NCBI GenBank assembly: GCA_963816145.1
Contig: CAWFJP010000014.1
Location: forward strand, 448,001-512,000
Source: an uncultured delta proteobacterium
GTDB lineage: Bacteria > Desulfobacterota > Binatia > UBA9968
Length of the DNA: 64,000 nt
Direction: 5' to 3'
The notes beneath the pieces were generated by a model that was given only the letters and a program-made list of their open reading frames with translations, was not told where the DNA came from and made no database searches. Positions within the stretch are counted from its first letter, which is position 1; each line of letters starts with the position of its first letter. This document shows positions 16,079 through 60,494 of this stretch, piece after piece. Position numbers and translations under genes: made by a program.

Positions 16079-17899
16079 ATGAAGACTCTTGCACAGACGT
16101 TCGCTGAGCTGCGCTATTCGTTTGTGCACACGCCGCAAGCGATTCGGTTCGTTTGGCGCAACAATCATTGGGGCATCCTCGGCTTGGCTTTTCTCACGCT
16201 TGCCGGCGCGCTGTTGCCGGCGGCACAAGCATGGGTTGGCAAGCTGATCGTCGACGGGGTGGTGGCGGCGATCCAGCATGGCCAGGATCACGATCAGGCA
16301 AAGTCAGTATTTTACTATCTTGTTGTAGAATTGTTGCTGATTCTGTTCGGCACTGGCGTCGTCCAAGCGCGCCGTCTGATTCAGCAGCTCACTCAACTTA
16401 AGCTCGCCAACCAGATTCGCGGCGAGATCATCGGCAAGGCGCTGACGCTGGATTTAGCCTTCTTCGAACACCCGGAGTATTACGACAAGCTGCAAAACGC
16501 CCGGCGCGAGGGTGGCTACAAGCCTGTCGAGCTGATCAACGATACGTTTCAGATCGTGCAAAATGCCATCACACTGGCGTCCTTTGCCGTACTGCTCTTG
16601 CGTTTCAGTCCGTGGCTGGTAGCGATTCTGGTTCTAACCAGCATCCCGGCGTTCATCGCCGAGACGCGCTTCTCGGGGCAAGGCTTTCGGCTATTGACCC
16701 GGCGCGCACCCGAGACCCGGCAGATTAACTATCTTTCCCGGCTGTTGACCGAGGACGCCTCGGCCAAGGAGATCAAACTTTTCAATTTGGGCGGGACTCT
16801 GCTGACGCGCTACATGACCTTGTTCGAAAAGTTTTTTCACGAAGACAAGGCGCTCGCTTGCCGGCGCGCTATGGCGGGCTTTAGCCTCGGGCTGGTCGCC
16901 ACGTTGGGATTCTATGGCTCCTATGCCTGGATCGTTTGGCACACCGTGCAGCGCCGGATCTCGCTTGGCGACATGACGCTCTATCTGGCGATCTTTCGCC
17001 AGGGGCAGGCGACGTTTCAAAACATACTCTACGCTGTCAGCAGCATTTACGAGAACAATCTGTTCATGTCGAATTTTTTCGAGTTTTTAGGCATGACGCC
17101 GCAGTTGGCGATCGCGGCCAAGCCCAAGGTGTTGCCGGCGACGCTGCGCTGCGGCATCGAGTTCCGCGATGTCGGCTTTCGTTATCCGGACAATGACGCA
17201 TGGGTATTGCGCCGCGTGAATCTCATCATCCGTCCGGGCGAGAAGATCGCGCTGGTGGGCCACAACGGCGCCGGTAAGACGACTTTGATCAAATTGTTGA
17301 GCCGGCTTTACGATCCGACCGAAGGCGCGATCTTGATCGACGGGATCGATCTGCGCGACGTCGATCCGCTGGCGCTGCGCCAGAAGATCGGCGTGATCTT
17401 CCAGGACTTCGTCCGTTTTCACTTGCCGGTGAAGGAAAACATCGGCTTCGGCCAGATCGACGCGGCGGCGGATCTGGACCGCATCGTCACGTCGGCACGC
17501 AAGAGCGGCGCCGATACGGTCATCGACCGCTTACCCGATGGCTACGACACCATGCTCGGCCGTTGGTTTAGCGGCGGCCATGAGCTTTCCCTCGGTCAGT
17601 GGCAGAAGGTCGCTCTGGCACGCGCGTTCATGCGCGAGGCCGAGATTCTGGTGCTCGACGAGCCCACGGCATCGGTGGATGCGCAGTCCGAGTACGAAAT
17701 CTTTTGCCACTTTCAGGAGTTGACGGCAGGGAAGATGGCGATCCTGATCTCCCATCGTTTCTCGACCGTGCGCATGGCCGATCGCATCGCAGTCATCGAA
17801 GGCGGCGGTATCGTCGAGATCGGCAGCCATAAAGAGCTGATCGATCGGAATGGCACCTACGCCCGCTTGTTTAGCATGCAGGCGGAAGGGTATCGATAA
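16079..17899 (+). CDS. ABC exporter, fused permease plus ATPase
   Basis: Several TM helices; GHNGAGKT, LSLGQWQK, LVLDEP, ISHR. Confidence 0.92.
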   Translation: MKTLAQTFAELRYSFVHTPQAIRFVWRNNHWGILGLAFLTLAGALLPAAQAWVGKLIVDGVVAAIQHGQDHDQAKSVFYYLVVELLLILFGTGVVQARRLIQQLTQLKLANQIRGEIIGKALTLDLAFFEHPEYYDKLQNARREGGYKPVELINDTFQIVQNAITLASFAVLLLRFSPWLVAILVLTSIPAFIAETRFSGQGFRLLTRRAPETRQINYLSRLLTEDASAKEIKLFNLGGTLLTRYMTLFEKFFHEDKALACRRAMAGFSLGLVATLGFYGSYAWIVWHTVQRRISLGDMTLYLAIFRQGQATFQNILYAVSSIYENNLFMSNFFEFLGMTPQLAIAAKPKVLPATLRCGIEFRDVGFRYPDNDAWVLRRVNLIIRPGEKIALVGHNGAGKTTLIKLLSRLYDPTEGAILIDGIDLRDVDPLALRQKIGVIFQDFVRFHLPVKENIGFGQIDAAADLDRIVTSARKSGADTVIDRLPDGYDTMLGRWFSGGHELSLGQWQKVALARAFMREAEILVLDEPTASVDAQSEYEIFCHFQELTAGKMAILISHRFSTVRMADRIAVIEGGGIVEIGSHKELIDRNGTYARLFSMQAEGYR

Positions 17900-18062
17900 T
17901 GCCAGCTGCCAATGACTTATTGAAATCGTTGCCGTCGATTTACCATGGTCGAACCATTGACGTCCGCTTTCCCAAGCCATGGCAGGACGCGTCGACGCGC
18001 GGCAACTTCAATGATTCAATTGGATGCCGCGCGTCGAAGTGGATTGGATGGAAATTGGCGCA

Positions 18063-18188
18063 TTAATCTCCGCTGCTGCTCGATCTCCCCTCCGACGATC
18101 CGCCGCTGCCCTCTTGTGAAACCTCAGGGCAACCTGCAAGCGCGAAAAGCGAGAGCAAAAGCATCACACTCCAAATTTTTTTCAACAT
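18063..18188 (-). CDS. 41-aa Ser/Gly-rich mini-lipoprotein (absent from the ORF track)
   Basis: Hand translation MLKKIWSVMLLLSLFALAGCPEVSQEGSGGSSEGRSSSSGD*; GGAGGAGG RBS 7 nt upstream; KK n-region, h-region, LAGC lipobox; sigma54 promoter upstream. Confidence 0.85.
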   Translation of the reverse strand: MLKKIWSVMLLLSLFALAGCPEVSQEGSGGSSEGRSSSSGD

Positions 18189-18251
18189 CGTTAATCCTCC
18201 TCCGCTGAATGTAGTCGAACATATCCGTGGACATGCCGCGAGCTTTGCGTC

Positions 18252-18267
18252 AGCAATTGCGATGCCA
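18252..18267 (-). promoter_or_regulatory. sigma54 -24/-12 promoter (copy 1)
   Basis: Minus strand reads TGGCAT-CGCAA-TTGCT, matching TGGCAC-N5-TTGCW; about 65 bp upstream of the mini-lipoprotein ATG. Confidence 0.85.
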
Positions 18268-18894
18268 TCAATTGCGCGATCAAAGCATAGATAAAACCGG
18301 CAACTGCGAACGATGATGCGGCGGAGATTGTGGCAAATTGAAACGTTTTTAAAGTGATTGGGCGTAGCGTTAAAAACTTTGCAGTGTGTTCACTACAAAT
18401 GGTTGTTCGTTGCAAAATCCGACGGATCGATGCATTTTACGACGTCCGCTGCGGCGGTAAAATTTTGGCTGTCTTGAAGAAACTGGGTTACGCCAGACGT
18501 GATTTGGCGAGGACCGACAGCGGCTCCATAGCTGTGGGACGAGGCTGTCCGTGGTGATCAAACGGCAAATCGATCCCGCTTCCGCAAACGCCTTGCCGAC
18601 CTTATCTTGTCGGCTGTGGTGAGGATGTATTTGATCGGGCCTCGATGGGCGCCTATCGATATACTCCGAAACTGGTGTTCCAGCAGTCACGCAGGGTGGA
18701 TTGGTGCCGCACGGGCGGTCGAGGCGTTTGCCAACAGCCCTTAAGAATGGTTGCTTTGGCGAGGAGGGGCGGCGATCCGCAATACCGCGTTGTGGAGTGA
18801 TGGTGAATTTAGGATGGATGTAAGGATAATCCCAAGTGTGGAGAACTACCTATCGGGCAGAACTCCGCACCTGGGCATCGGCTGGTGGGTTCAA

Positions 18895-19062
18895 TTATTC
18901 TGATTCAGGCTTGGGCTCAGGTTTCGGTGCCGGCTTTGGCGCTGGCTTTTCGTCCGGTGAAGGCTCGTCCTGGGCGTAACTGATTGTCACCATCTTTCCG
19001 ATGCCCGGTAGAGCCCAGTTCATTAACGACAATGCAACTACAAGAATCAATGTCTTTTTCAT
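18895..19062 (-). CDS. 55-aa secreted Pro/Lys/Glu-rich peptide
   Basis: MKKTLILVVALSLMNWALPGIGKMVTISYA|QDEPSPDEKPAPKPAPKPEPKPESE; GGGAG RBS; signal-peptide-like N-terminus. Confidence 0.7.
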   Translation of the reverse strand: MKKTLILVVALSLMNWALPGIGKMVTISYAQDEPSPDEKPAPKPAPKPEPKPESE

Positions 19063-19279
19063 ATGAATCTCCCAAATGGGTTGTGATGAGGGTTGGTAGA
19101 GTTTTTGTGGTTGTTCAATCACCGCTGTCTCTGCGAACCCGTGCGCAGATTCGGCGGTCTCATTGGATTCGCTGGAATCCGTAGAGTTGACTCCCCCTTG
19201 TCGAGCCATGCTTCGACATCCTGCCAAAGCACACAACGAGACCGGCAACGCCAAAATCCAAGTCTCTTCGTTACATCAT
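19063..19279 (-). pseudogene. Start-disrupted paralog of the mini-lipoprotein
   Basis: GGAGGG RBS then ATG ATG TAA; the adjacent frame reads TWILALPVSLCALAGCRSMARQGG with the same W-to-C spacing as copy 1 and continues in frame into 19062. Confidence 0.6.
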
Positions 19280-19343
19280 AATTGTTTTTCCCTCCGCTCG
19301 ATTTTGTCGGACATGTCTTTGAACACGCGCGCACCTTTGGTTC

Positions 19344-19359
19344 AGCAATTGCGATGCCA
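19344..19359 (-). promoter_or_regulatory. sigma54 -24/-12 promoter (copy 2)
   Basis: TGGCATCGCAATTGCT, part of an 18-bp exact match to 18250-18267. Confidence 0.85.
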
Positions 19360-19641
19360 GCTGAATTGGCCGTCGTCATTTCGATATCTCATGAAATTTG
19401 ATTAGATAAGTCGGGCGTTCATCGCTGCAATATCAAACACCATGACCATCAACCTGATCATGACCGCGAATAAGGCGCTTAAATTGTCGAGCGTGATCGA
19501 GCGATGCAAAAATCCACGTGGCGATGCGATTTGCTACACTGTTAACAGGGCCGGCTGCATTATCGTGGGTATGGCGATACCATCTGTTCCCTCGGTGATA
19601 TTGACGTGCGGTATCAATCTGTGTCGATCCTATTAAAACGA

Positions 19642-21183
19642 ATGCGGCTTGGAACAAAACTTATAATCGGTCTGGTTTTCGCTTTAATCGTCATCATGCT
19701 TGTCCATGGCTATCTAAGCCTGCGCCAAGACCAGGAAAATATGACCCGGGAAATGCGCGTAGGCATGTTGGGATTGGCCCGCACCGTTCGAGTTGCGCTG
19801 CAGCATGCTTATGGTGACGAGGGTAATCTACGGGCGACCCAAAGCTTGATCGACGGCATCGGCCGTCCTGGTAACATTCATGGATTGGTCATCTATGATC
19901 CCGCCGGTAAGCGGGCAGCTATATCTGTCTCCTTGATCGACACCGGCAGTGTGCCAAATCTCGATCCGGCACCGGTTTTGAGTATCGATCCCGGTCCAAC
20001 GTTGGCGGATGGGGAAAGTCGGGAGGGTTTCATCGAACACCCTGCGCACCCGGTATATTTTCGAATCGAGCCGATAATGGACAGTCAGAATCACGTCGCT
20101 GGTGCTGTCGTTGTCGGGCGGCGCGGCTTGGGTTTGCCCGACGTTCTGGAATCTCGGCGCGATCGTATCCTGGTAACTACCGGAACTTTGATCGTTGTTA
20201 TGTCACTGTCGATTTTGATAATTGTACGGCGCAATATTTCACGGCCAATCGAGCTGCTCATCGAGCGTATTCGGAACGTCGGGATTGGACCCTGGGATCG
20301 GCGAGTGCCGGTTGAAGGAAACAACGAGATCAGTTTGCTCGCCCGTGAGTTTAATCAAATGTGTGAACGCCTCCAGGATTTGTACGCGTCGTTGGCTCGG
20401 GAAAAGCAGGACAGGGCTGGATTGGAACGAAACCTGCGCCAATCGGAAAAGTTGGCTTCGGTAGGCCAACTCGCGGCCGGGCTGGCCCATGAAATTGGCA
20501 CGCCGCTCAATATCATCGGCGGCCGGGCCGATTTTCTTCTGCGGCGACAGCGCAGTGCAGCGGAGATTAGCGATAATCTACAGACTATTCATTCGCAAAT
20601 TGATCGGATAGCGGGCATTGTGCGCCAGCTTTTGGAGTTTTCCCGGCGGCGCGAGCCGGCAATCCGCGCCGTCGAACTCAAACCTCTGATCGAAAAAATC
20701 GCCAGTCTTCTTGAACATAAAATCGCCGAAAGAAAGGTTTCAGTCGATTATCAAATCCCGGCTGGCTTGCCATGCATTGCTGGCGATCCTGACCAACTGC
20801 AGCAAGTCTTTCTCAACCTTTTCCTGAACGCACTCCATGCGCTGCCGCCGAACGGGCAAATTCGCATCCGTGCTAAGCTGGTTGAGAGCGGAGCGGTCAG
20901 CATTCCCGTGGAGGACGCGCAGCGTGGACTGCAGGTTGAGTTTGAGGATAACGGAACTGGCATTCCAGCTCATCAAATTGGTCAGGTGTTCGATCCATTC
21001 TTTACGACCAAGGACGTCGGCGAGGGTACGGGGCTCGGCCTGTCAGTAAGCTATGGTATCATCAAGGACCACGGCGGCGAAATTAGGGTGGACAGCCAGG
21101 TCGGTCAATTCACTCGTTTTACGATATTTCTTCCGTCGCAACTAGATCTGTCTGCCAAGCCTGAGGCGGTGATTATTCAATGA
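19642..21183 (+). CDS. Membrane sensor histidine kinase with HAMP domain (NtrB/ZraS-like)
   Basis: Two TMs flanking a periplasmic domain; LAHEIGTPL, QVFLNL..NA, DNGTG, FDPFFTTK, GTGLGL. Confidence 0.95.
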   Translation: MRLGTKLIIGLVFALIVIMLVHGYLSLRQDQENMTREMRVGMLGLARTVRVALQHAYGDEGNLRATQSLIDGIGRPGNIHGLVIYDPAGKRAAISVSLIDTGSVPNLDPAPVLSIDPGPTLADGESREGFIEHPAHPVYFRIEPIMDSQNHVAGAVVVGRRGLGLPDVLESRRDRILVTTGTLIVVMSLSILIIVRRNISRPIELLIERIRNVGIGPWDRRVPVEGNNEISLLAREFNQMCERLQDLYASLAREKQDRAGLERNLRQSEKLASVGQLAAGLAHEIGTPLNIIGGRADFLLRRQRSAAEISDNLQTIHSQIDRIAGIVRQLLEFSRRREPAIRAVELKPLIEKIASLLEHKIAERKVSVDYQIPAGLPCIAGDPDQLQQVFLNLFLNALHALPPNGQIRIRAKLVESGAVSIPVEDAQRGLQVEFEDNGTGIPAHQIGQVFDPFFTTKDVGEGTGLGLSVSYGIIKDHGGEIRVDSQVGQFTRFTIFLPSQLDLSAKPEAVIIQ

Positions 21184-22568
21184 CACAACCCCAGTTAAAG
21201 TCGAAATCCCAGGCCGGTCGGATTCTCGTTGTCGACGACGATCACGCAATGTGCCAATTGCTCTACGATTTACTACGTGATGAAGGATATGACGTCGACG
21301 TAGCGTACGATGGAGGCTCAGCTCTCGAGAAATATCGACTCGCACCATTCGATTTGGCGATCACCGATCTGATGATGCCGAGGATGAAAGGTGTGGAGCT
21401 GGTCTCTCGATTCAGGCAGGTTGACGGCGGCGCATTGGTCTTATTGATCACCGCTTTTGGCACCATTGAGAGCGCGGTTGAAGCGATGCGGGCCGGAGCT
21501 TTTCATTATGTTACCAAGCCATTTCACAATGATGAGATTCTGATCCAGGTTAAACGGGCGCTCGAGCAAAAGTCGCTCCGCGAAGAGGTTCAGCGTTTAC
21601 GCGACGCCGTCGACGCGCGCAACCGTTTTCAAAATGTTATTGGCCAATGCGACGCCATGCAACGGGTCTATGAGATCGTCGCGCAGATCAGTGATCTGCC
21701 GAACAACGTGTTGATTGAAGGCGAAAGCGGCACCGGCAAGGAATTGATCGCCCGCGCCATTCATCAAAATAGTTCGCGCGCGACGGGACCGTTTGTCGCG
21801 GTCAACTGCGCGGCCATTCCGGAAAACCTGCTTGAAAGCGAGCTGTTTGGTTACGTTCGAGGGGCTTTTACCGACGCGCGAAAAGATCGGCGCGGTTTGT
21901 TCCAAGAGGCCAGCAGCGGGATTCTTTTTCTCGATGAAATAGGAGAAATTCCCTTGTCCTTGCAAGCAAAGCTACTTCGCTTATTGGAAGACAAGGAAGT
22001 CCGTCCGCTGGGCGCCAATCAGAGCGAGAAAATCGATACCCGCATCGTGTCGGCGTCCAACCGCGATCTTGCAGATCAGGTACAGCAGGGAAAATTTAGG
22101 CGGGATCTTTATTATCGACTCAACGTCATTCGCATCGAACTGCCGGCCCTGCGCCAGCGCAGCCACGATATTCCATTGCTAGTGAATCATTTTCTACAAA
22201 AGTTCGCCGCCGGCGCGAATCACAAAGTCGACGGCGTTGCCGCCGATGCCATGGCCGCATTAAAGGCCTACGAATGGCCGGGTAACATCCGTGAACTTGA
22301 ACACACCATCGAAAGGGCGGTACTTCTGGGGAAAGGAGCTGTGATTGGGATGGACGATTTGCCGCCCGTCATGGCTAAAAAAGCTGAATTAGAGATTTTA
22401 ATGGCTCAGGGCATAGCCAAACAGTTCACGCTCGCCGATCTCGAACGGGAATATATCGGCAAAGTTTTAGAGTCGACTCAAGGCAATAAGACGGAAGCCG
22501 CTAAGATGCTTGGTGTCGACCGCACGACGCTCTATCGTAAGCTCGAAGAATATAAGATCAAGGAGTGA
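21180..22568 (+). CDS. sigma54-dependent response regulator (NtrC/AtoC family)
   Basis: REC VVDDD/TDLMMP; GESGTGKE; GAFTDA; WPGNIREL; Fis HTH; ATGA overlap with the kinase. Confidence 0.95.
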   Translation: MTQPQLKSKSQAGRILVVDDDHAMCQLLYDLLRDEGYDVDVAYDGGSALEKYRLAPFDLAITDLMMPRMKGVELVSRFRQVDGGALVLLITAFGTIESAVEAMRAGAFHYVTKPFHNDEILIQVKRALEQKSLREEVQRLRDAVDARNRFQNVIGQCDAMQRVYEIVAQISDLPNNVLIEGESGTGKELIARAIHQNSSRATGPFVAVNCAAIPENLLESELFGYVRGAFTDARKDRRGLFQEASSGILFLDEIGEIPLSLQAKLLRLLEDKEVRPLGANQSEKIDTRIVSASNRDLADQVQQGKFRRDLYYRLNVIRIELPALRQRSHDIPLLVNHFLQKFAAGANHKVDGVAADAMAALKAYEWPGNIRELEHTIERAVLLGKGAVIGMDDLPPVMAKKAELEILMAQGIAKQFTLADLEREYIGKVLESTQGNKTEAAKMLGVDRTTLYRKLEEYKIKE

Positions 22569-60478: not shown

Positions 60479-60494
60479 TGGCACTAAGGTTGCT
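60479..60494 (+). promoter_or_regulatory. sigma54 -24/-12 promoter
   Basis: TGGCAC-TAAGG-TTGCT, a perfect consensus 45 bp before ATG60539. Confidence 0.9.

Follow-up and report, generated by a model that had tools for sequence, protein, structure and literature searches.

In a window of 64,000 nucleotides (nt) from an uncultured delta proteobacterium (GTDB lineage Desulfobacterota; Binatia; UBA9968; contig CAWFJP010000014.1, positions 448,001 to 512,000), a sensor histidine kinase and an NtrC-type response regulator lie opposite two short units, each headed by a sequence that resembles a sigma-54 promoter. Our results suggest that the locus forms a sigma-54 two-component module, conserved within its lineage and specific to it, which has tiny exported peptides as local outputs, and we regard this reading as likely. 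The distal unit encodes class A, a predicted lipoprotein of 41 amino acids (aa), and the proximal unit encodes class B, a 55-aa protein with a Sec-type signal. Judged by their sequences, class A and class B are two new micro-protein families with mature lengths of 13-25 aa.

An earlier note on this DNA, made from the letters alone, had proposed a self-contained signalling module whose outputs are tiny envelope peptides encoded by a duplicated mini-lipoprotein cassette. The underlying observation and the link between promoters and peptides stand, but the duplicated-cassette reading does not. The note correctly described the divergent neighbors as a kinase and an NtrC-type regulator, whose domains Pfam finds on the plus strand, and the first copy does hold an intact ORF (open reading frame) for a 41-aa lipoprotein with a 22-aa mature part. 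The W-x10-LAGC pattern that it read in both copies is indeed present in both, yet the proximal copy has no intact lipoprotein frame. That unit instead contains a dead lipoprotein remnant and drives class B, a second small gene (18895-19062, minus strand) that the note missed.

Conservation and expression of two sigma-54 units

The association of promoter, small gene, and kinase extends well beyond the window. Full-length orthologues of the kinase (49-87% identity) occur in 15 other genomes of the genus, and a regulator orthologue (65-92% identity) follows the kinase in 11 of those 15 loci. At all 16 genus loci, the window included, a divergent sigma-54 site lies on the opposite strand 185-285 nt from the kinase start, and the promoter is followed by a ribosome-binding site (RBS) and a small ORF, which nearly everywhere is class A or class B. 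One of these loci (L043, in G005) comes from unpublished data. It also contributes to the 14 class B genes and the 12 regulators considered below, with one member each, and nothing rests on it. Furthermore, the exact 15-mer TGGCATCGCAATTGC was found in 15 of 31 genus genomes, once each except for two copies in G000 and G016, while a reversed-pattern control gave 0 matches in the genus genomes. When the first 200 residues of the kinase were searched against 301 genomes of the class, eight sensor matches had at least 44% identity, two of them in the genus (that of G006 is among the 16 loci above) and six in five other genera of the family, and the promoter was present at all eight. Seven of the eight were read: six have class B, in one case behind a decayed class A, and one has a class-A-like lipoprotein. 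Promoter, enhancer blocks, RBS, and ORFs are conserved across at least six genera.

The promoters themselves stand out from the sequence background. The 18-mer that the earlier note had seen twice is the shared end of a computed direct repeat (18199-18267 and 19291-19359; 69 nt, 75% identity, no gaps), which agrees with the note's hand count of 51 matches in 68 ungapped positions. This repeat runs from promoter to RBS, with TGGCATCGCAATTGCT on the minus strand at the upstream end of each copy (Table 1). Both sites score 21/23 on a simple weighted consensus and have GG and GC 10 nt apart. Matches to TGGCAY-N5-TTGCW number 3 in the window against 0.16 expected, a count that 1 of 100 shuffles reached. 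The source assembly (7.8 Mb, 56% G+C, 31 contigs), from which a planctomycete marker family is absent, encodes rpoN in a 505-aa open frame on contig C11 (Sigma54_DBD match, E 1.2e-62) and has 46 such sites genome-wide, all ending in TTGCT and most followed by an RBS and a start codon; among them, the spacer CGCAA is confined to the two TGGCATCGCAATTGCT sites. With rpoN present and a promoter at every genus locus and every close sensor match, the two window sites have the appearance of genuine sigma-54 promoters that belong to this kinase/activator pair, as the earlier note had supposed, and both would depend on sigma-54 and on the regulator.

Other sigma-54-like sites were seen along the way. 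A third, weaker one on the minus strand, CGGCAAGGCGTTTGCG (18583-18598; score 20/23), falls in the spacer that separates the units, and a consensus site on the plus strand, TGGCACTAAGGTTGCT (60479-60494), is followed by an RBS and a 248-aa ORF. Small ORFs also stand behind other sigma-54 sites of the genome (G000 C11:144534, C13:1816, C30:513596; C15:21054, C29:370907; C3:836297). They include three 49-69-aa proteins with a C..C...H....H pattern, two near-identical helix-turn-helix proteins of 67-91 aa, and one 115-aa Gly-rich lipoprotein, the promoter of which also has GTTGCAA at -176.

Upstream of the promoters, conserved blocks recur at fixed distances in 14 aligned regions, those of both window promoters included. 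The upstream block, at about -180 to -145, reads TGT.G.AA...GC..CG....GT.G..TTTTGCAAC, and the downstream block, at about -80 to -65, reads GT.T.A..TTGC.ACA. The distal promoter has TTTTGCAAC at -148, within the element at 18409-18446, and the proximal promoter has TTTTGCATC at -150 and ATTGCAGC at -71. These elements resemble a dyad, TGTTGCAA-N-TTGCAACA, with the core TTGCAAC / TGT.G-N7-CAACA, and each block of the distal enhancer-like region has an aligned counterpart in the intergenic region next to the kinase at other loci (L035-L037). The blocks occupy the usual position of activator sites, where the regulator would be expected to bind. Near the other 44 sigma-54 sites of the genome, TTGCAAC occurs 3 times against about 1 expected, which is too weak to define a regulon. 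A site for integration host factor, judged by eye, appears in some relatives but is unconvincing in the window and is not claimed.

Downstream of the promoters, the 5' leader contains a hairpin with five consensus pairs, three of them supported by compensatory changes, followed by CGACAA and then the RBS. Its arms differ among relatives (ACATG/CATGT, CCTGTT/AACAGG, GCGCCTC/GAGGCG, ACCGGA/TCCGGT), and hairpin and CGACAA together are a possible element of mRNA stability or control. It is because leaders and promoters are conserved in both units that the 68-nt block of the earlier note is repeated. Each unit also ends in a hairpin. The one after class B (18825-18879) has a minimum free energy (MFE) that none of 200 shuffles equaled (z -4.5; Table 1), and the one beyond class A (17992-18037) is 100% complementary (MFE -32.1 kcal/mol, z -3.2).

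Environmental RNA is consistent with transcription of both units. DNA of the stretch was found in 14 soil and wetland metagenome runs (0.66-0.82 of sampled words). Six RNA runs share a small part of its words, and four of them, from four studies, were aligned; the sources are soil, rhizosphere, and sediment metatranscriptomes. The distal unit is covered by contigs from three studies (18039-18193, 17950-18193, and 17967-18193) that extend 33-37 nt into a homologous but non-identical leader, as from a related strain, with a consensus that holds ATGTTCGAC and GGAGGG; they reach to within 11-15 nt of the predicted start at 18241. Class B is covered by contigs at 18835-19109 and 18887-19037, and the proximal leader with its dead class A by contigs from two studies (19106-19309 and 19113-19312, no loose ends) that reach to within 21-24 nt of the predicted start at 19333. 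Contig ends so near the predicted starts are a weak hint that transcription begins there. There is no contig cover at 18235-18834 and 19318-19650, and those parts were not used as evidence. Taken together with the coding pattern described below, RNA contigs over both small genes bear out the earlier note's proposal that the outputs are tiny, presumably exported, peptides.

One detail of these contigs deserves separate mention. The starts or ends of contigs from three studies, none of them loose, cluster within 8 nt at 19106-19113, in an A-rich stretch 45-50 nt upstream of the class B start. RNA processing, a second start, or an artefact of assembly could explain this.

Two peptide families and their history

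The class A ORF is MLKKIWSVMLLLSLFALAGCPEVSQEGSGGSSEGRSSSSGD. Its signal has a KK pair, a hydrophobic core, and the lipobox MLKKIWSVMLLLSLFALAG/C (LAG/C, the slash marking the predicted cleavage), with the Cys at position 20, and it shows the full lipobox pattern that we looked for ([LVI][ASTVI][GAS]C, charged n-region, hydrophobic core, Cys within residues 15-35). The predicted mature lipopeptide is CPEVSQEGSGGSSEGRSSSSGD. Pfam LPAM_1 matches weakly, below its cut-off (E 0.085), and the genome has two above-cut-off matches each for lgt and lspA. Class A would accordingly be expected to be cleaved, lipidated, and anchored in a membrane. Among relatives, K, G-C-P, and Q are invariant and E-[VM]-[SA]-Q-Q nearly so, with G-C kept in 14 aligned sequences. 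Furthermore, the substitutions in class A follow a coding pattern: in 13 sequences compared over 23 codons, mean pairwise differences at the three codon positions are 0.326/0.053/0.527, and the ratio of nonsynonymous to synonymous differences (pN/pS) is 0.29.

Class B reads MKKTLILVVALSLMNWALPGIGKMVTISYA/QDEPSPDEKPAPKPAPKPEPKPESE, with a Sec-type signal ending in SYA/Q, a cleavage site assigned by rule, and a predicted proline-rich mature part of 25 aa. Its relatives share an MKK start, a hydrophobic stretch, and S-[YF]-A/Q-[ED]-[ES]-P, in which A-Q is invariant in 17 sequences; P34, P44, and P46 are further invariants. These features point to export to the periplasm. The class A remnant in front of class B has an ATG behind the RBS that is at once followed by ATG TAA (19279-19271). 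Its W-x10-LAGC lipobox lies in another frame (Cys codon 19216-19218), the Lys pair of the n-region is replaced by Glu, the mature part is divergent, and no stop codon intervenes before class B. Against intact class A, the remnant gives a weak tblastn match (E 0.018).

Neither peptide has a further copy elsewhere in the source genome, and neither matches Pfam or NCBIfam, the ZraP/CpxP/Spy families included, even at E up to 10 or 0.1. The earlier note's expectation that the genes would be invisible to standard gene callers came close: among 5.8 billion database proteins there are two clusters for class A, one of which is the window's own gene called from an internal GTG, and five for class B. 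One source names a class B relative (P0010, 63 aa) "outer membrane biosynthesis protein TonB," presumably because of its Glu-Pro/Lys-Pro run, and this label is likely a mis-annotation. Look-ups in a protein atlas gave only matches below 0.9, to unnamed clusters, and word searches of the literature, in which the peptide sequences did not serve as queries, returned no paper describing the peptides or the module.

Table 1. Features of the two units and the divergent two-component system (positions in the window)
Feature	Position	Strand	Remarks
Sensor histidine kinase, 513 aa	19642..21183	+	Transmembrane helix 1, ~150-aa periplasmic domain, transmembrane helix 2, HAMP, HisKA, HATPase (Pfam)
NtrC-type sigma-54 enhancer-binding response regulator, 462 aa	21180..22568	+	Response_reg, Sigma54_activat, AAA_lid_14, HTH_8
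Proximal enhancer-like region	19421..19539	-	Elements at about -180/-150 (19501-19539) and about -75 (19421-19441)
Proximal putative sigma-54 (-24/-12) promoter TGGCATCGCAATTGCT	19344..19359	-	Predicted transcription start near 19333
Proximal counterpart of the 5' leader	19280-19333	-	Corresponds to class A leader 18189-18241
Decayed class A lipoprotein remnant, leader of the class B transcript	19063..19279	-	Reading of the sequence
Class B gene, 55 aa, Sec-type signal	18895..19062	-	RBS GGGAGA 6 nt upstream
Stable hairpin after class B, terminator-like, no U tract	18825..18879	-	MFE -30.9 kcal/mol
Distal enhancer-like region	18328..18446	-	Elements at 18409-18446 and 18328-18346
Distal putative sigma-54 promoter TGGCATCGCAATTGCT	18252..18267	-	Predicted transcription start near 18241
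Class A 5' leader: short hairpin, CGAC(A/T)A motif, RBS GGAGGAGG	18189..18241	-	Conservation
Class A gene, 41 aa, lipoprotein signal	18063..18188	-	Mature lipopeptide predicted, 22 aa
Perfect 13-bp hairpin separating class A from the convergent ABC exporter gene	17992..18037	-	Bidirectional, terminator-like

Comparison among relatives yielded 13 intact class A genes (39-46 aa), with a further one truncated at the end of its contig, and 14 class B genes (41-58 aa). Except for class B of the window, all of these peptide genes sit less than 400 nt after the promoter, and RBS-like sequence precedes the starts that were checked. The order promoter-A-B is intact in G018, where class A has a GTG start, and a decayed A followed by B is seen in the window, G002, and G046. 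These arrangements make it probable that a single promoter originally drove A followed by B and that one or the other member was later lost repeatedly. Beyond the genomes, a metagenome scan for the 15-mer found a class A gene at one (L179) of 80 loci inspected, among at least 120 matches; the rest of the inspected loci look like chance matches.

The two units of the window have separate affinities. The distal unit (436 nt, from the enhancer region through promoter and leader to class A) shares 74-77% identity over 363-418 nt with the single cassette beside the kinase in G003, G004, and G019, and matches its proximal neighbor over only 70 nt, at 79%. The proximal unit, in turn, finds its best match in its G002 orthologue (70% over 361 nt). 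Since the distal unit is closer to the cassettes of other species than to its neighbor, both units are old rather than the outcome of a recent duplication; either an early duplication followed by divergent decay or a gain of the distal unit by recombination from a related lineage could account for them. In addition, the module is split in G017. One contig (G017:C3; L163, 5800-7703) has a class A cassette directly opposite a regulator orthologue (73% identity) with no kinase, and a separate contig (G017:C10; L041) has the kinase with a class B cassette and no regulator. The parts can therefore evidently work, or at least persist, in trans.

Next to the distal unit, an MsbA-like ABC exporter gene (16079-17899) runs convergently with class A and scores below all equivalog cut-offs. 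Its position is kept in the window and six other loci (5 of 15 loci compared, plus G017:C3) and not in the others.

The sensor, the regulator, and what the peptides may do

The kinase starts at a conserved ATG (19642, MRLGTKL...) rather than at the GTG of the longest ORF (19606), according to a gap-free alignment of 11 orthologues. An AlphaFold2 model of residues 1-200, built from 25 sequences, has a mean predicted local distance difference test score (pLDDT) of 86.6 and consists of helices H3-59 and H63-73, five strands, and helix H165-199. Its best Foldseek matches are the extracellular domain of WalK (E 2.5e-6 to 1e-7), CitA, KinD, DcuS, and DctB, and sequence searches of the periplasmic domain gave weak matches to CHASE4 and sCache_3_2 (E ~0.04). 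On this model, residues ~24-175 are a PDC/Cache-type periplasmic domain between two membrane helices, in keeping with the earlier note's description of a periplasmic-sensing kinase. Residues 1-200 have 59 representatives at E <= 0.001 among 1.84 billion proteins, and the sensor orthologues keep Tyr139, Tyr140, Arg141, and the motif GNIHG. A contig search with the kinase alignment, which relied on generic kinase motifs, returned 78 unrelated loci and no close relatives.

The regulator matches the full Sigma54_activat profile (E 4e-71) and falls below the cut-off of every NCBIfam equivalog, the best being AtoC, NtrC, and ZraR. Its sigma-54 contact loop is treated with the counterevidence below. 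A coupling of the promoter spacer CGCAA to that loop was considered and dropped, as relatives with other spacers keep the same loop.

In the mechanism that we propose, the kinase would sense a periplasmic cue through its PDC/Cache-type domain and phosphorylate the NtrC-type activator. Upstream of each TGGCATCGCAATTGCT promoter, the activator would then bind three enhancer-like elements, at about -180, -150, and -75 with the core TTGCAAC, and open the sigma-54 holoenzyme complex at the promoter, giving rise to two short, hairpin-bounded mRNAs. The proximal mRNA (~19333 to 18830) would carry the dead lipoprotein as its leader and encode class B, the mature form of which, a 25-aa acidic/basic proline-rich peptide, would be released into the periplasm. 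The distal mRNA (~18241 to 18000) would encode class A, leaving a 22-aa Gly/Ser-rich acidic lipopeptide anchored in a membrane. By analogy with ZraP, CpxP, and MgrB, the peptides may serve as periplasmic accessory or feedback modulators of the kinase, a role that we put forward tentatively and with less than even confidence.

Several observations weigh against a module of this kind. The regulator has GAFTDA instead of GAFTGA in its sigma-54 contact loop, in 12 of 12 orthologues; this is the sole such variant among 28 loop motifs in the genome, 21 of which are GAFTGA. No sigma-54-like site was found for the kinase operon itself (plus strand, 17900-19700), unlike zraSR. At 14 loci with sensors of at most 36% identity, mostly in one other family, there was no strict promoter match. 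The peptide class beside the kinase varies by lineage (A, B, or both) while the sensor stays orthologous, so that tight ligand-receptor pairing is not favored. The coding signature of class B is weaker than that of class A (pN/pS 0.63; differences 0.464/0.383/0.611 over 25 codons in 14 sequences), in part because the signals differ in length and the anchor is ungapped. The RNA contigs reveal neither strand nor level nor true ends, the runs were picked by means of the stretch itself, and RNA libraries may carry over DNA; given these limits, the RNA evidence is supportive and not proof. Finally, it is by inference that we speak of dependence on sigma-54, binding by the regulator, export, lipidation, or any action on the kinase.

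Other roles for the peptides can be envisioned. They could be end products that take no part in signalling, namely abundant, hydrophilic, disordered envelope peptides that shield or condition periplasm or membranes under a soil stress (drying, osmotic or ionic shifts, for example). Low-complexity, charged, Gly/Ser- or Pro-rich mature parts would suit such a role, and osmotically induced small lipoproteins such as OsmB exist. The Gly-rich lipoprotein behind another sigma-54 promoter of this genome fits as well. Transcripts were abundant enough to assemble from metatranscriptomes of four studies, although contig depth is no measure of expression. Yet both mature peptides keep their N-terminal motifs more strictly than a bulk physicochemical function needs, and lineages tolerate the loss of either class. 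We give a purely protective role slightly lower odds than feedback on the kinase.

Alternatively, the peptides might be secreted autocrine or quorum-type signals, sensed by the PDC domain of the kinase, perhaps by their acidic ends, in a positive loop on their own sigma-54 promoters. Here, a periplasmic PDC sensor adjoins its own secreted-peptide genes, and the mature parts are short with conserved motifs, CPEV[SA]QQG and QE[ES]P.P..PKP. PDC sensors such as CitA and DcuS, both among the fold matches, bind carboxylates; most of the peptides end in Asp or Glu, but several end in Q, N, R, or M. In favor, the sensor keeps its tyrosines, arginine, and GNIHG motif; against, the peptide class changes beside an orthologous sensor. 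Moreover, there is no obvious route across the outer membrane for a lipid-anchored peptide or a periplasmic peptide of 1.5-3 kDa, and the module has no conserved companion genes for processing or export, the MsbA-like exporter being syntenic in some lineages only. We therefore consider secreted signalling unlikely. The same low standing applies to a circuit in which the PDC kinase reads the level of its own sigma-54-driven micro-peptides (the 22-aa lipopeptide and the 13-25-aa proline-rich, Gln-first peptides), where recognition might proceed through the conserved N-terminal motifs or the acidic C-termini. If true, two new micro-protein families would underlie an autocrine or kin-sensing loop in a diderm soil lineage, or else a device that fixes a periplasmic set point.

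It is also conceivable, but highly improbable, that the functional products are small sigma-54-dependent regulatory RNAs, like glmY or Qrr, with the short ORFs a secondary or incidental matter. Hairpins bound these short units, the leader hairpin shows compensatory changes and is followed by CGACAA, and RNA contigs cover the 270-nt proximal leader of a dead gene. An RNA-only reading nevertheless sits poorly with class A, which varies least at second codon positions and has the low pN/pS given above, and with the start codon, RBS, lipobox or A-Q cleavage motif, and stop kept in the 13 class A and 14 class B genes. It is the coding pattern of class A, together with the lack of an Rfam match (the single hit, E 0.49, lies over the kinase start and is unrelated), that makes this reading unlikely. 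That the repeat is chance or a decaying remnant and the small ORFs are not genes is scarcely credible: one of two lipoprotein frames has decayed here, as in G002 and G046, and database gene calls are very few, but conservation across at least six genera, the empty reversed-pattern control, the coding signature, and the RNA contigs all speak against it.

Comparison with known systems

The module that we propose, with tiny exported peptides as local outputs, resembles zraP-zraSR in that the genes of a membrane sensor kinase and an NtrC-type activator diverge from a sigma-54 promoter that serves a small periplasmic protein. ZraP, at roughly 140 aa, is a folded protein and, going by the title of Appia-Ayme 2012, is reportedly a repressor of ZraSR. 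The NCBIfam models of ZraS and ZraR are among the best matches here but far below threshold (195.7 versus 479 bits for the kinase, 415.2 versus 760 for the regulator). In addition, the peptides lie outside ZraP/CpxP/Spy, have predicted mature parts of 13-25 aa, include one predicted lipoprotein, and are served by two separate promoters. As set out in the cited portion of PMC4987338, ZraR of E. coli and Salmonella drives both divergent sigma-54 promoters, which differs from the kinase operon here, for which no sigma-54 site was found.

A second point of reference is MgrB, a 47-aa envelope peptide of a two-component regulon, which inhibits its own sensor kinase PhoQ (cited portions of PMC2789325 and bioRxiv 10.1101/438515). 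MgrB is a transmembrane peptide, whereas those described here are predicted to be a cleaved lipopeptide and a soluble peptide, and there is no sequence relation. The periplasmic domain of PhoQ is also PDC-type; mgrB is PhoP- and sigma-70-dependent and not adjacent to phoPQ. The control of glmY by GlrK(QseE)-QseG-GlrR(QseF) is similar in its two-component sigma-54 activator, several TGT...ACA-type sites, and very short transcript, and GlrR is among the sub-threshold matches of our regulator. The GlrK-GlrR system also has a lipoprotein, QseG, which is much larger and encoded inside the kinase operon. The GlrR site, given as TGTC-N10-GACA in the cited portion of PMC4987338, is unlike the elements TTGCAAC / TGT.G-N7-CAACA of this locus, and the products here are protein-coding. 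Nla28 of Myxococcus xanthus, compared by DNA site only, was rejected as an identity for the regulator, its half-site CT(C/G)CG(C/G)AG (in the cited portion of PMC9765219) being unlike the TTGCAAC-type blocks.

In every sequence test, the peptides and their two-component system fall outside the ZraP/ZraSR and MgrB families. Very small lipoproteins such as entericidin A/B, LptM/YifL, and Lpp have ~40-70 aa and a mature part of a few dozen residues. The LptM signal/mature model touches class A over residues 1-20 only, which are signal (E 0.026, 14.6 bits against a cut-off of 27.7); class A has no Entericidin or other Pfam match, and CPEV[SA]QQG is foreign to these lipoprotein families in the libraries. 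With one sensor, one activator, and two promoters with recognizable enhancer-like elements, the locus offers a clean case for the role of micro-peptides in the envelope, and natural variants are at hand in which A or B stands alone, both occur, or kinase and activator are separated. Set beside its known counterparts, the wiring of kinase, NtrC-type activator, and divergent sigma-54 target is textbook; what is not textbook is that the targets are micro-peptides.

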